A DNA stretch of 41,870 nucleotides, taken from NCBI GenBank assembly GCA_035362415.1, contig DAOSDM010000005.1, positions 1 to 41,870 on the forward strand, written 5' to 3'. Both the position numbers and the translations under genes were made by a program. The notes beneath the pieces were generated by a model. The model was not told the DNA's origin and made no database searches. It saw only the letters and a list, made by a program, of their open reading frames with translations. This document shows, in pieces, positions 27,269 to 39,472 of the stretch; position 1 is the stretch's first letter; the number at the start of each line of letters is the position of its first letter. The DNA is from Candidatus Pacearchaeota archaeon (GTDB lineage: Bacteria > Patescibacteriota > Minisyncoccia > Minisyncoccales > Minisyncoccaceae).

Positions 27269-29038
27269 TTATAAACTTTGTCTCTTTTTAATCTCTTCAG
27301 GATTTGTTGTAATAATTTGGTCCTCTGTATATGAAGCAACCACTCTTATAGCAACGTGTTTTTGTCCTGCAAAAAAGATTCCTTCCCCTACTGGAACTTC
27401 CAAAAGAAGCATTTTTTCTTGATCAGTTAACATAAAGGTTTCTTGAATTAAATCAATTCCAGCAGGACTTTGTTTTAATAATAACTGAATAGAGGAGTTG
27501 GTAATAATAGGCTTTCCATAACTTGATTTCATAAAATCTGACACATCCTGAGTAATTGTTGTAACTCCAAGCCAATACTTTCTTCCTCTTTTACATAAAC
27601 CAAATAAGAAAGAAGCACCATCTTCATTTTGCATCATCCACCATGCCTCATCAATAATCAAAATTCTTTTCTTTAAAGTAGTCCTTACAGCGTTCCAAAT
27701 AAATCTCATGATAATAAACATAGCAATTGGACGAAGCTCGTCTTCAATATCTCTTATACCAAAAACAGTTAATCCATTATCTGTGCTTACATTTGATTTA
27801 TTATTAAAGAATTCTGAAAAAGTTCCTTTTGTAAACTTTCTTAATTTTTCACTTAATTCCTCTGCTCCATCCATTCCTTCGAGTACTGACTCTAAATCAC
27901 CTAAAATAGGAACATTATCTTTCCATGTTCTTGGATCAGAATTAGGTGTAATATCTCTTGCCGCATATGTTTCGCTTAAAGCTCTATCAATAATGGCGTC
28001 TTCTTCAGGCGATAATCCACCAAGCATAACTCTCATAAGACCTACAAGATTAATAATGTTTGATCTTAAAATATCTTCTGGATCTTCCCCTTCTTTTACC
28101 TCTGGTAAATCAAAAGGGTTAATGTGGCTATCTGATCCAAGAGAGATGTTATAAAAAGAGCCCCCTGTAGCTTCTGCAAGCGTTTTGTATTCGTTTTCAG
28201 GATCAATTATAATACAATCTATGCCAACCATAAGCGATCTTAAAACTTCGAGCTTAACAGCATAAGACTTACCAGAACCAGATTTAGCAAAAATAACCAT
28301 GTTAGCATTTTCCAAACTAAACCTATCAAAAAGAACAAGGGAATTGTTATGTTTATTTATTCCAAAAAGTATCCCATCATTACTACTTAGATCAAATGAT
28401 ATAAAAGGAAAAATACTTGATAAAGGAGAGGTGTTAAGAGTTGTATGAATGCCTAAATTATCTAGTCCATAAGGAGATGTGGACAAGAGTCCTTCTTTCT
28501 GCTGATATAAGGCTGGTTTAATATATATTAATCTTGATTCTAATATCGATCTTAAGGTTGTCTCAATTTGAATTAATTCATTTTTACTTTTTGCATAAAC
28601 AGTAATATATAATCCAAACTTAAACATTTTTTCTTGAGCAGTCTGAAGGCTCCCCCTAAGCTCTTCTAAATCATGATAAGCTGTTTCAAGTGCTGGATCG
28701 GAAATTAATCCCTTTTCCTCTCTATCAATTAATTCTGCTTGTACTTCAGTAACTTTACGCCTTAATTGCTTTAAAACTGTCTCTGTTTCGATTGGATGGA
28801 AGAAGAAGGAAATATCTAAAGGAATGTCCAAGTTAATTATTGGAGACAACCATCCAGTGTTTAGATATCTCGGGTAAGAGAAAATAAAATAGGTTTTAGT
28901 TAAAACTTCTCCAATTTCTGCATCACTTGGATTAATTTTAATCGAAGCTGGAGCAATAATATCTTTTTCATTAACAAGCTCCTCACTAAATAGTTTCTGT
29001 TTTACTTCTTCTGTATTTTTTTTACTAAATAATCCCAT
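27269..29038 (-). CDS. VirB4/TrbE/CagE-family T4SS ATPase, C-terminal ATPase portion
   Basis: Walker A AKSGSGKS; Walker B ILIIDEAWWMM. The region between the Walker motifs reads VirB4-like. Confidence 0.75.
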   Translation of the reverse strand: MGLFSKKNTEEVKQKLFSEELVNEKDIIAPASIKINPSDAEIGEVLTKTYFIFSYPRYLNTGWLSPIINLDIPLDISFFFHPIETETVLKQLRRKVTEVQAELIDREEKGLISDPALETAYHDLEELRGSLQTAQEKMFKFGLYITVYAKSKNELIQIETTLRSILESRLIYIKPALYQQKEGLLSTSPYGLDNLGIHTTLNTSPLSSIFPFISFDLSSNDGILFGINKHNNSLVLFDRFSLENANMVIFAKSGSGKSYAVKLEVLRSLMVGIDCIIIDPENEYKTLAEATGGSFYNISLGSDSHINPFDLPEVKEGEDPEDILRSNIINLVGLMRVMLGGLSPEEDAIIDRALSETYAARDITPNSDPRTWKDNVPILGDLESVLEGMDGAEELSEKLRKFTKGTFSEFFNNKSNVSTDNGLTVFGIRDIEDELRPIAMFIIMRFIWNAVRTTLKKRILIIDEAWWMMQNEDGASFLFGLCKRGRKYWLGVTTITQDVSDFMKSSYGKPIITNSSIQLLLKQSPAGIDLIQETFMLTDQEKMLLLEVPVGEGIFFAGQKHVAIRVVASYTEDQIITTNPEEIKKRQSL

Positions 29039-29042
29039 TTTA

Positions 29043-36701: not shown

Positions 36702-36709
36702 ATAATTAT

Positions 36710-39472
36710 TTATTTTAAAAAGTTTCCAAATACGCCAACATTATAGCCAACAAAAGTTAAAACAAAATCAATAGCTGTTATGGAGAAAATGATAATAAGT
36801 AATCCTAATCCAATATATTTCCACAAATCCTTTATTTGAACAATTACCTTTGGATTTCCAAGAGCAGTAAAAAACTTAATTCCAGAATAGACTACACTTC
36901 CAGCTATAATTAAAGGAACAAGTCTTCCTAATGCAAAATCAATGATATTTCGTAAAATAATTAAAAGATGAGAAATTGTACAAGACTCTCTTTCGTTCCA
37001 AGGAGTTTCTGGATCGTCAAGTGGCCTTCCACAAGGAACAATACTTTTCGTGTTGTTATTCGTTTCCGAAACTTTTTCTCTTGTTTCAGGATTAATATTT
37101 TGAAATATTGTAAAATTTTTAGATTCACTCCATTCACTAAAAGTACCATCATCACATTTATCTGAAAAACAAGACCTTACTTTCCATGTATAGGTTCCCA
37201 AACATTGTGGAGAGAAAAAATATTCATTGCTATTTATAATATTTTCTTTTTTATCTAAACTTTCACAAAATTTAGAAGTTTCTTCCTCACCCTTTGTATA
37301 ATCAAAACTTATTTGATATGTTTTTATTTGATTAACTTCACCCCATTTTAAATTAGATCCTCTGTCCTCATATAAAGACAAAGTCTTGTTTTCAGGCTCT
37401 AGTCCCGTAGGAGCATCTAACTTTACTTTGAAACTTAATGTATTGCTATAATCCCCGCATTTGTTACCCTCAATGTCAGCACAAGTTTTAACTTGCCAAT
37501 TATAATCAGTATTTACCTTAAAAGGAAGGTCTTCTGAATATTCTAATTTCAAATTATCCCATCTTATTTTAATTTCCTTATTAATGCCCCCACCCTCTAG
37601 TTTAAAAATATATGACCTAGCTCCAGGAACGCTATTCCATTTAAAATTAAGTGGAGGAATAACTTCTCCGCTAGGTGAAATTAATTCAGGAGGATTACCC
37701 GTTATAGTGAATTTATACAATTGAGACCAATCATCGCAATTCTTATAATATCTGTCAGTACAATTTTTGAATCTCCAAGAATAAGTTGTTTTTAAATCTA
37801 AATCATTGTATGAAATACCTGAAGCAGATAATTCCTTTGTTTCAATTAATGCTCCGTTTTTATAAAACTCAAAAATACTTGAAACATACCCATAAGGATT
37901 AACCCAAGAAATATTTACTGGAAGCCCAACAAAAGAACCATCGGCTGGAACAATATTCGTGCTTTCCCCAAGATCGGCATCACTTGTTTCAAAATACCAT
38001 TCTTGACTATATGGTCTAGTGGAACAAATACCTGCCATTACTGTAGGACACCCTCTCACTTTCCAAGAATGCCTGCTGTTTTTTATAAACATGTAATTAT
38101 CTATATCTGAATATTCACTAAATAAATTCAATGTTACAGGGTTAGAAATGTGATAGCAAAGTTCATCTGTTATACCTTTGTTAAAAGCACAAACTTTTTT
38201 TGTTTCATTTGTTTCTGGATTTGTTTCAAATATTTTAGGTAAAATACTATAAGAATTAGTTCCTCTTTTTTCTAATCTCCCAGAATCTACATCACACCAA
38301 TCTAGAAGTACAGGTGGCGTTACTTTTAAGCCAGAGGTTGGCGCTTGCAGAGCCCAATCAAATGGCTCATAATCCGCATTATTTAATGGAAGCTTATCTA
38401 TACTATCTATTTGAGGCCATGCATTCCATGCAGAATAATTAGAACCTTCCCAATCTAAGTCTTCAGGTGACTTTAGTTCAGGAGCATAGGCAGTTGTAAA
38501 TTTAAAGTTTGATCCAGAATTACATTCTGTTCCATCAGCCTTACAACATGTTTGTATTGTTAAATCGTATTCTTGGCCGCTTTTTAGCCAACAAGGGTTA
38601 TGATCTACTCTAAAATTATATTCAGAAGATCTATAAGTTCCCTTGTCTATGTAATTTGGCTGACTATCAGTATTAAGAACTTTATAGAAATAACCTTCCT
38701 TAATCTCATTTGTATCCTGATCAAAGTTTTTAGAAATATAATCACTAAAAGTTTCGCTATCTGCCTTTGTTGGAGGATTTACTAAATTAACAACTTTATT
38801 GTCTACTTCTTCACTTACCTTAAGACTCAATTTATATGATTGTGGACCTATGGCAGTAATACCTTCGGGGCACCCAAAATTACCACAACTTCCACTTTTT
38901 TGCCAATAAGCATTTTCATCCCAATCAATCTTAAGCGGAGATTTCACATTAGTCGAATCGTTACTAGGCTCTATACAATTACTTGTAATATTTTCAGAAC
39001 ATGTTTGAGGATAATCTTCAGAACCATCTATTGTTAGCTCCGGATTTTTTGGATAATTTGGATTACTATAATATCTCAATCCAGAAACATTATCTAAACA
39101 ATTTCCACTACATACAAAATATGGCTTTGTTCCTGAAGTGGAACTGCTTCCACACTTACTTTTAGGACGCTCATAATATGATCCTCCTACACAAACCTGC
39201 CAAGGCTCTGCAACCGATACAATTACTTCTGAACTAAGATAAGGATACCTATCAGGTATTTTAGGACATATACCATGCTCAGTACATCTGCAACATTCCC
39301 ATCCAACCCAAGTTTCTTTTATTATTTTTGCGTCTCCACAACCGCCAGAACATTTATAAATATTATATGTGTATGTATATGTTTTACAACCTGCTAAAAC
39401 AAAATCAGAAGATACTCCCAAGCCCATGGAAATTAATATAAATAACAAAAAAAATTTAATATATATTTTCAT
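36710..39472 (-). CDS. large Cys-rich surface protein (predicted lipoprotein) with FN3-like repeats and C-terminal VirB2-like two-helix domain
   Basis: Signal peptide with lipobox VLAGC. Cys-dense N-terminal region. FN3-like segments (e.g. PPELISPSGEVIPPLNFKWNSVPGARSYIF). C-terminal LVPLIIAGSVVYSGIKFFTALGNPKVIVQIKDLWKYIGLGLLIII. Overlaps the rsmA stop by 17 nt. Confidence 0.6.
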   Translation of the reverse strand: MKIYIKFFLLFILISMGLGVSSDFVLAGCKTYTYTYNIYKCSGGCGDAKIIKETWVGWECCRCTEHGICPKIPDRYPYLSSEVIVSVAEPWQVCVGGSYYERPKSKCGSSSTSGTKPYFVCSGNCLDNVSGLRYYSNPNYPKNPELTIDGSEDYPQTCSENITSNCIEPSNDSTNVKSPLKIDWDENAYWQKSGSCGNFGCPEGITAIGPQSYKLSLKVSEEVDNKVVNLVNPPTKADSETFSDYISKNFDQDTNEIKEGYFYKVLNTDSQPNYIDKGTYRSSEYNFRVDHNPCWLKSGQEYDLTIQTCCKADGTECNSGSNFKFTTAYAPELKSPEDLDWEGSNYSAWNAWPQIDSIDKLPLNNADYEPFDWALQAPTSGLKVTPPVLLDWCDVDSGRLEKRGTNSYSILPKIFETNPETNETKKVCAFNKGITDELCYHISNPVTLNLFSEYSDIDNYMFIKNSRHSWKVRGCPTVMAGICSTRPYSQEWYFETSDADLGESTNIVPADGSFVGLPVNISWVNPYGYVSSIFEFYKNGALIETKELSASGISYNDLDLKTTYSWRFKNCTDRYYKNCDDWSQLYKFTITGNPPELISPSGEVIPPLNFKWNSVPGARSYIFKLEGGGINKEIKIRWDNLKLEYSEDLPFKVNTDYNWQVKTCADIEGNKCGDYSNTLSFKVKLDAPTGLEPENKTLSLYEDRGSNLKWGEVNQIKTYQISFDYTKGEEETSKFCESLDKKENIINSNEYFFSPQCLGTYTWKVRSCFSDKCDDGTFSEWSESKNFTIFQNINPETREKVSETNNNTKSIVPCGRPLDDPETPWNERESCTISHLLIILRNIIDFALGRLVPLIIAGSVVYSGIKFFTALGNPKVIVQIKDLWKYIGLGLLIIIFSITAIDFVLTFVGYNVGVFGNFLK

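Follow-up and report, generated by a model that had tools for sequence, protein, structure and literature searches.

A chromosomal type IV secretion locus beside the replication origin of a patescibacterium, probably serving contact-dependent exchange rather than conjugation

Patescibacteria, ultrasmall and parasitic, typically have beside their replication origin a chromosomal type IV secretion system (T4SS) without a relaxase, of a kind that was described between 2023 and 2025. Quinonero-Coronel et al. 2025, who surveyed 3,035 Patescibacteria genomes, found that the VirB4 proteins of these bacteria form a monophyletic clade nested in the MPF-FATA class, and that TrsD, PrgI/VirB3, VirB6 and pilins of the families PF18895 and PF04956 are encoded near virB4 (PMC12102498). 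Relaxases are present in only 103 of the 3,035 genomes; homologues of the coupling protein VirD4 (T4CP) are present in most of them, usually far from virB4 (PMC12102498). In Paceibacteria and Microgenomatia the T4SS lies next to dnaA, dnaN, rnpA, rpmH and KsgA (rsmA) (PMC12102498). In Southlakia the VirD4 homologue is not essential, while the T4SS is (PMC12102498), and transposon sequencing by Wang et al. 2023 found the homologous Southlakia cluster and its pilins to be essential for epibiotic growth (PMC10633639). Here we analyse a T4SS-like gene cluster in a stretch of 41,870 nucleotides (nt), contig DAOSDM010000005.1 of assembly GCA_035362415.1, which we call the window. The locus is a lineage-typical example of the published system; we report a re-discovery and not a new system. 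With a probability of about 0.75, we read it as a vertically inherited Patescibacteria chromosomal T4SS, domesticated from monoderm (MPF-FATA) conjugation machinery, that sits beside oriC and serves contact-dependent exchange, not conjugation. The additions made here are minor: a divergent SPFH gene, the prevalence of large pilin-domain fusions, and a family represented by a protein of 133 amino acids (aa) with a D-x-Y-R/K-E motif.

With the published Patescibacteria T4SS (PMC12102498) the locus shares a monoderm VirB4 with a TrsD-like protein encoded by a gene of its own, PrgI/VirB3, PF18895 pilins and a putative VirB6-like protein, as well as the lack of a relaxase in the cluster and a chromosomal place beside dnaA, dnaN, rnpA, rpmH and KsgA. 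There are also differences. An SPFH gene is embedded divergently, a DUF4143 ATPase gene lies between virB4 and jag, and there are no peptidase or lysozyme genes directly downstream of virB4. The six-gene tandem pilin array of Southlakia epibionticum ML1 (SEML1_0006-0019) is not found here; in its stead there are two pilin-domain genes with large ectodomains and a third, short pilin gene about 5 kb past rsmA, outside the window.

The wider comparison is with systems of known function. Like the MPF-FATA systems (CTn2 of C. difficile with CD1110, Prg/Pcf of pCF10, Trs of pGO1), the locus has a VirB4 that passes the CD1110 cut-off, a PrgI-type VirB3, a TrsD-type protein as in pGO1, and no outer-membrane core complex. 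Unlike them, it has no relaxase, T4CP, oriT or integrase, and it occupies a fixed chromosomal site with vertical inheritance; it also has VirB2-like pilins, which monoderm conjugative systems lack. Those pilins, with their hairpin domains, recall Agrobacterium VirB and R388 Trw, as do the VirB3-VirB4 module and the putative VirB6-like protein, which matches TrwI best in fold. However, VirB5 and VirB7-11 are missing here, the envelope is monoderm, and the pilin domains are fused to large ectodomains, whereas the pilins of Agrobacterium VirB and R388 Trw are peptides of about 70 aa. Finally, a VirB4-family ATPase without relaxase or coupling protein, and possibly an import direction, would be shared with ComB of Helicobacter and Ced of the Sulfolobales. 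The similarity to these does not extend to the profiles: VirB4 scores 65.4 bits with CedB against a cut-off of 700, CedD gives 26.5 against 600, and no ComB or Ced partner families were found with Pfam and NCBIfam. The essential role of the Southlakia T4SS is moreover independent of ComEC.

The motor operon and the membrane platform

For comparison with relatives we took the 80 best genomic loci by VirB4, whose VirB4 is 55-92% identical to that of the window. Unless stated otherwise, fractions of related loci given below have as denominator the loci with enough flank, the fetched flanks stopping at 10 kb.

The best characterised product of the cluster is a VirB4 ATPase of the monoderm CD1110 (MPF-FATA) type, 589 aa long (27269..29038, minus strand). 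It matches NCBIfam conju_CD1110 at 1e-108 with 364.6 bits, above the cut-off of 325, over model positions 169-733 of 752. Pfam recognises P-loop_TraG (5e-25) and AAA_10 (6e-14) in it, and its closest solved relative is the C-terminal domain of Thermoanaerobacter VirB4 (PDB 4AG5, 3e-41). The nucleotide-binding motifs are intact, with Walker A as AKSGSGKS and Walker B as ILIIDEAW at residue 459.

Just upstream lies a TrsD-like gene of 212 aa (29043..29681, minus strand), whose product is a homologue of the N-terminal domain of canonical VirB4. The protein matches NCBIfam TrsD/TraD (3e-7), positions 2-117 of the CD1110 model and positions 99-241 of VirB4_plasma, all under the family cut-offs; it has no match in the PDB. 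From these alignments, the 212-aa and 589-aa genes together appear to correspond to one canonical monoderm VirB4. We considered whether they might be a frameshifted or broken VirB4 gene and rejected this. Their junction reads TAATAA, 1 nt, ATG, a double stop, and the TrsD homologue is a separate open reading frame (ORF) in 75 of 75 related loci. The 212-aa ORF is therefore a conserved separate gene and not a pseudogene.

The next gene upstream encodes a PrgI-family protein of 140 aa, the VirB3 equivalent of monoderm T4SSs (29683..30105, minus strand). It has transmembrane segments at 19-37 and 48-66, matches Pfam PrgI at 6e-9 (36.8 bits, cut-off 27), and recurs in 71/72 related loci.

The operon begins with a soluble protein of 133 aa without transmembrane segments (30171..30572, minus strand). 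This is a conserved family, present in 60/68 related loci and always on the virB4 strand, upstream of virB4. Its alignment shows an N-domain that is helical and about 95 aa long, then a linker, variable and charged or Pro-rich, and a conserved D-x-Y-R/K-E(P) motif at the extreme C-terminus. No consistent match came from scanning 25 members with Pfam or from searching the PDB with a profile. The protein could be an adaptor or a substrate. In more distant loci (L073-L080) the protein is 360-630 aa long and ends in another C-terminal domain.

An extended polytopic membrane protein of 704 aa (32028..34142, minus strand), with some nine hydrophobic segments between residues 5 and 361 and a helical hydrophilic C-terminal domain, would complete the platform as a VirB6-like protein. 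It has no direct profile match in Pfam or NCBIfam, and a profile search of PDB sequences returned coiled-coil noise only. Among its family, 5/33 members match TrbL/VirB6 PF04610 (best 5.5e-5), and eight homologues bear a precomputed PF19590 match. The AlphaFold2 (AF2) model (pLDDT 72) has TrwI/VirB6 of R388 as its top Foldseek match in the PDB (7o3v_G, probability 0.97, TM-score 0.48; 8rtd_I, TM-score 0.58; both scores target-normalised), at an E-value of only 0.4. The family is found upstream of virB4 in 43 of 49 related loci. Taken together, this homology and the predicted fold support the VirB6-like assignment with moderate confidence.

An earlier note on this DNA, made from the sequence alone, had called these products a VirB4 ATPase, a VirB4 N-terminal part, a VirB3-like and a VirB6-like protein. 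The first and third names are borne out by scores above the conju_CD1110 and PrgI cut-offs, and the second by the TrsD match together with its place at the N-terminal positions of the VirB4 models. The fourth stands in part: the TrbL/VirB6 matches of homologues and the TrwI fold favour it, while the protein itself lacks a direct profile match.

Between the 133-aa gene and the VirB6-like gene, on the plus strand, lies an SPFH/Band-7 membrane protein gene of 438 aa (30685..32001; Pfam Band_7 1e-8). The protein has transmembrane segments at 14-32 and 44-62, an SPFH domain and an Ala/Glu-rich coiled coil. A word-based homologue search found it in 11 close relatives only; a locus-based hidden Markov model (HMM) was more informative, and in 39/39 related loci where it detected the gene, this lies upstream of virB4 on the other strand. 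In the clade with VirB4 identity >=65% it is present in 31 of 41 loci. The main text of Quinonero-Coronel et al. 2025 does not mention an SPFH gene (PMC12102498). The protein may be a membrane scaffold for the T4SS machine.

Pilin domains fused to large surface proteins

Two genes of the cluster encode proteins with VirB2-like pilin domains. The smaller is a protein of 295 aa (34132..35019, minus strand), with a signal peptide, a two-helix pilin domain at 44-113, transmembrane segments at 8-26, 57-75 and 95-113, and a C-terminal extension of about 180 aa that contains Cys residues. It matches Pfam T4SS_pilin PF18895 (8.1e-10, 39.1 bits) above the cut-off of 26.6, which agrees with the VirB2-like label it had been given, and NCBIfam Mbov_0395 pilin-like at 6e-6. 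A beta/gamma-crystallin-like motif, FWEEKNFTG, in the C-terminal extension was also considered, and was dropped when Pfam gave no support at E-values up to 5.

The larger is a Cys-rich surface protein of 920 aa (36710..39472, minus strand), with FN3-like domains and a C-terminal VirB2-like hairpin. It has a signal peptide, 34 Cys residues, a Cys-rich N-terminal half, and transmembrane segments at 3-21, 838-856 and 887-905. Pfam finds no match in the Cys-rich half. The AF2 model shows tandem beta-sandwich domains at about 490-800 (pLDDT 70-94) and, at 833-869/874-907, a hairpin of two helices; Foldseek matches the beta-sandwich domains to FN3 arrays (about 3e-12). The hairpin can be linked to the pilins in two ways: hhalign aligns residues 834-904 with that part of the 295-aa pilin which PF18895 covers (E 1.4e-4), and an HMM built from other pilin domains only matches residues 838-906 (6.6e-6). 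We read the 920-aa protein, from these alignments and its modelled fold, as a putative adhesin fused to a VirB2 (pilin) domain. Its family is narrow, with 18 database matches, all unannotated.

Such fusions are prevalent among relatives. We surveyed pilin-domain ORFs within 10 kb of virB4 and found 74 at 43 related loci. In 61 of the 74 the domain stands at the N-terminus with an extension of over 100 aa behind it; six ORFs belong to the C-terminal type, and five are of 180 aa or less. Lengths reach 1477 aa. The ectodomains are poorly conserved in comparison with the highly conserved VirB4 of the related loci. A conserved motor with variable surface fusions fits host-specific adhesion.

Two more products come from this part of the cluster. 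A membrane-anchored protein of 248 aa with a transmembrane segment at 12-30 follows the 920-aa gene (35955..36701, minus strand). Its homologues occur in seven loci, directly after a 920-aa homologue in six of them and directly after rsmA in the seventh. It has no PDB match and no convincing family in Pfam or NCBIfam, a match to Pfam PsbP (0.005) being below cut-off. The other is a single-transmembrane orphan of 204 aa on the plus strand (35120..35734), which interrupts the cluster. It is an ORF in the window and also a gene call on public contigs, has no Pfam or NCBIfam match, and has no homologue in the 80 related loci. Whether it is part of the T4SS is doubtful.

The third pilin-like gene mentioned above is short (138 aa) and TrbC/T4SS_pilin-like. 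It lies next to rpsO and the polynucleotide phosphorylase (PNPase) gene, some 2-5 kb to the right of the window, past its rsmA end (L081:605-3530).

Chromosomal setting and descent

The T4SS cluster lies between rsmA and the rpmH-rnpA-yidC-jag / dnaA-dnaN block, whose genes other than rpmH were identified by Pfam. The gene rsmA/ksgA, for 16S rRNA dimethyltransferase, forms the upstream edge (39456..40268, minus strand; Pfam RrnaAD 5e-56). On the other side, about 3 kb from the virB4 stop codon, there is an origin-of-replication context: the dnaA-rpmH intergenic region with DnaA boxes, and rpmH (24131..24455). A scan for boxes and ORFs found one perfect DnaA box, TTATCCACA, at 24218-24226, two boxes with one mismatch at 24158-24166 and 24207-24215, and rpmH as a 44-aa L34-like ORF at 24315-24449, so that boxes and rpmH together span 24158-24449.

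This position recurs among relatives. In the clade with VirB4 identity >=65%, dnaA is downstream of virB4 in 37/38 loci. A gene for rsmA is found at the upstream cluster edge, on the same strand, in at least eight related loci; eight is a lower bound, because the flanks end at 10 kb and the distance from the virB4 start up to that of rsmA is 10.4 kb in the window. In every locus compared, conservation is higher for VirB4 than for DnaA, DnaN, YidC, Jag, RnpA, PBP1a, RuvC and YebC, with a median identity for VirB4 of about 75% against 47-61% for the other proteins. VirB4 identity is correlated with that of its neighbours, DnaA, YidC, Jag and PBP1a among them (Spearman rho 0.6-0.8). Such conservation, together with co-divergence with housekeeping neighbours, points to vertical inheritance with strong constraint and speaks against a mobile element.

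The 80 related loci are mostly titled as Patescibacteria (Paceibacterota, Minisyncoccales, Nealsonbacteria, Parcubacteria, Saccharibacteria) and include cultured parasites of archaea, Minisyncoccus archaeiphilus and Microsyncoccus archaeolyticus. Some are labelled Saccharibacteria, Gammaproteobacteria, Sulfurimonas or Pacearchaeota, and the 920-aa protein itself was deposited as 'Candidatus Pacearchaeota archaeon'. These labels look wrong because of gene content (dnaA, penicillin-binding proteins, rnpA) and nearest relatives; the lineage looks like a Paceibacterota-type patescibacterium.

Genes of conjugative DNA processing and of integration were sought in the window and around it. Flanks were read from public contigs carrying identical proteins, about 5 kb on the right and about 10 kb on the left, giving about 57 kb in total. 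Among all sizeable ORFs of the window, Pfam scans detected neither a relaxase nor VirD4, VirB11 or an integrase. The window is also free of tRNA genes and of att-like flanking direct repeats, the repeats seen there being short, imperfect and AT-rich. Nor are there conjugative DNA-processing or integration genes among the gene calls of the flanks. On the right these comprise a 557-aa hypothetical protein, PNPase, rpsO and the third short pilin; on the left, Fic, RuvB, a T2SSE ATPase, AbiEii, TsaE and an Avd/reverse-transcriptase pair.

The earlier note had already listed relaxase, VirD4, VirB11, integrase and an att-like boundary as absent from the window, in agreement with these scans. It had also proposed that the cluster is chromosomal and not an integrated conjugative element. 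The origin-proximal position, the correlation with neighbours, the lack of integration genes in window and flanks and the synteny comparison that the note had called for all support this, for the origin-adjacent place and the gene order recur among related loci. Its further suggestion, a non-conjugative use of the T4SS scaffold as in episymbionts, is probably right, since window and flanks hold no DNA-processing genes and the published descriptions match.

The transcriptional picture needs to be redrawn. All nine minus-strand ORFs of the earlier description exist at their coordinates with their lengths, and the overlaps of 17 nt (rsmA and the 920-aa gene, a junction that we also read directly) and 11 nt (the 295-aa and 704-aa genes) fit the ORF coordinates. 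What that description presented as a single minus-strand string, however, left out two plus-strand genes, SPFH at 30685-32001 and the 204-aa gene at 35120-35734. There are five strand switches in the cluster, and with opposite-strand genes inside it a single transcript is impossible. From gene orientation, we distinguish at least three minus-strand units: rsmA-920-248, pilin-VirB6-like and 133-PrgI-TrsD-VirB4, the last with gaps of 65, 1 and 4 nt. The proposed co-transcription with rsmA is thus possible for the 920-aa and 248-aa genes, which could share its transcript, and fails for the remainder, from which opposite-strand genes separate it. The divergent intergenic region between the 133-aa and SPFH genes (30573-30684, 112 nt) holds good -35/-10 matches, a strong one being at 30612-30640 ahead of the SPFH gene. 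G+C content is 0.33-0.37 at 31000-36000, which covers the SPFH, VirB6-like, pilin and 204-aa orphan genes, and about 0.25-0.32 elsewhere in the window, the window as a whole having about 30%.

Several neighbours of the cluster deserve a brief mention. A gene for a peptidoglycan hydrolase with LysM (6e-26) and Peptidase_M23 (2e-26) domains diverges from rsmA (40426..41454, plus strand) and holds the same divergent place beside rsmA in five related loci. We infer that it could be an analogue of VirB1 in wall remodelling or a hydrolase of ordinary cell division; the Patescibacteria T4SS survey notes proteins with M23/LysM domains as VirB1 candidates (PMC12102498). The DUF4143/AAA_14 ATPase gene between virB4 and jag (26001-27131, minus strand) looks recently inserted, because the distance from virB4 to jag is <=200 nt in most relatives and a homologue is present in 3 of all 80 loci. 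A sequence of 25 nt that includes its start codon has a near-duplicate (92%) 32 nt upstream (27129-27185).

The rest of the window is housekeeping by Pfam: dnaA, dnaN, rnpA, yidC, jag, two class A penicillin-binding proteins, RuvC, YebC and NDK. It also contains Hsp20, YceG, a sigma factor, an alpha-2-macroglobulin of 2110 aa and three type IV pilin-like genes. The bacterial alpha-2-macroglobulin (9045-17420; MG2, A2M, TED, bMG10) is encoded next to a class A penicillin-binding protein. This pairing is known chiefly in diderm bacteria and is unexpected in a reduced, monoderm-like genome. The three pilin-like genes (454-3795, minus strand) are paralogous, all bearing an N_methyl prepilin motif together with a Laminin_G_3/ConA-like lectin domain, and are interrupted by a protein-L-isoaspartate methyltransferase gene; their products are probably adhesive minor pilins of a separate type IV pilus system. 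About 8-10 kb to the left of the window (L085:18600-20897), a bAvd-like gene and a reverse transcriptase gene (RVT_1) stand beside a pilin-like gene with N_methyl and FGE-sulfatase (C-type lectin fold) domains. This looks like a diversity-generating retroelement targeting a pilin.

Contact-dependent exchange and its alternatives

What might such a locus do? It encodes an inner-membrane platform of VirB4, a separate TrsD-like N-domain, PrgI/VirB3 and an extended VirB6-like protein. To this are added the two VirB2-like pilin-domain proteins, one with an ectodomain of about 800 aa made of a Cys-rich part and FN3 domains, the other with its C-terminal extension of about 180 aa. The divergently transcribed SPFH protein and the small 133-aa protein are conserved accessories. 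In well-studied T4SSs, VirB4 serves as a dislocase for pilins, T-pili can be built without VirD4, and the VirB2 hairpin has its two ends pointing outwards. We suggest that the VirB4/TrsD motor, docked on PrgI and VirB6, would pull the pilin-domain proteins out of the membrane, and that these would be assembled into a surface filament or tube. As the hairpin termini point outwards, the fused ectodomains would be displayed on the cell exterior and would touch the host cell. Filament and channel would then mediate a contact-dependent exchange of macromolecules with the host, and not conjugation.

Several points weigh against this reading. Pilus formation, cargo and direction of transport are all inferred for this organism. 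No VirB8-like or VirB1-family protein was identified in the locus. The TrsD match of the 212-aa protein is far under the curated NCBIfam cut-off, and the VirB6 assignment relies on transitive Pfam matches and on a fold match with a weak E-value (0.4). It is also difficult to see how subunits that each carry an ectodomain of about 800 aa would fit into a VirB2 filament, which is tightly packed; perhaps the 920-aa protein is a minor or tip adhesin, or one that is simply anchored in the membrane. A coupling protein or relaxase may be encoded elsewhere in the genome. Finally, a scan for promoters and terminators gave counts not above those of shuffled-sequence controls, and the operon structure is therefore read from the orientation of the genes.

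The most probable alternative is that the apparatus works mainly inward, as an import machine or feeding tube that takes up host DNA, RNA or other cytoplasmic material. By analogy with Helicobacter ComB or Sulfolobales Ced, it would offset missing nucleotide biosynthesis. The locus lacks a T4CP and a relaxase, as ComB does, and CedB, a DNA importer of archaea, is weakly matched by its VirB4 (4e-18). A 2026 preprint reports that a cultured relative from this phylum takes up host RNA; it also describes a monophyletic VirB4, and tubular structures at the parasite-host interface that are proposed to be T4SS pili (bioRxiv 10.64898/2026.06.21.733656). However, the same preprint leaves the mechanism of uptake unresolved. 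The CedB score of 65 bits falls far from its cut-off of 700, while the conjugative CD1110 model scores 364.6, and the cluster has neither a nuclease nor a ComEC nor a DNA-binding gene. Southlakia survives deletion of comEC, ComEC-dependent transformation being dispensable there and the T4SS essential (2025 review, PMC12857230); the essential role is therefore not classical DNA uptake. We regard import as the main function as unlikely.

A more elaborate version of this idea can be imagined. The origin-proximal T4SS could be a feeding organelle rather than a device for secretion or conjugation, in which VirB2-domain fusions build a host-piercing tube, variable ectodomains set host specificity, host RNA and other macromolecules are drawn through the VirB6/VirB4 channel, and the SPFH protein organises the membrane site. 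As a whole this is a speculative and rather improbable picture.

Could the locus still be a functional conjugation system, with relaxase, oriT and coupling protein elsewhere or too divergent to be recognised? VirB4, PrgI and TrsD are homologues of the monoderm conjugative type, and the published survey finds VirD4 homologues in most Patescibacteria genomes, with T4CP genes often far from virB4 (PMC12102498). Against this, there is no relaxase, T4CP or integrase in the approximately 57 kb examined, and the rarity of relaxases (103 of 3,035 genomes; PMC12102498) extends to Patescibacteria at large. A fixed origin-proximal position and co-divergence with housekeeping genes are unlike a mobile element, and in Southlakia it is the T4SS and not the VirD4 homologue that is essential (PMC12102498). 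Conjugation is accordingly a very improbable function. That the locus is the decaying remnant of an ancient integrated conjugative element without current function, as the missing T4CP, relaxase, recognisable VirB8 and VirB1 and the DUF4143 ATPase and orphan genes inserted in or beside the cluster might hint, is effectively refuted by the conservation data, since all ORFs are intact with Walker A and Walker B present, VirB4 is 55-92% identical over 80 loci and more conserved than DnaA in all, gene order is kept among relatives, and the homologous system is essential in Southlakia (PMC10633639).

We therefore return to a chromosomal T4SS that probably serves contact-dependent exchange with a host. 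Few machines are known to be indispensable to the epibiotic life of this very large and mostly uncultured bacterial radiation, and the Patescibacteria T4SS is one of them. The present locus confirms what has been published, and does so in a lineage with cultured relatives that carry related loci and parasitise methanogenic archaea. The conservation of VirB4, the variable pilin fusions, the divergent SPFH gene and the 133-aa protein could serve as handles on host specificity, on assembly and on the recognition of substrates.

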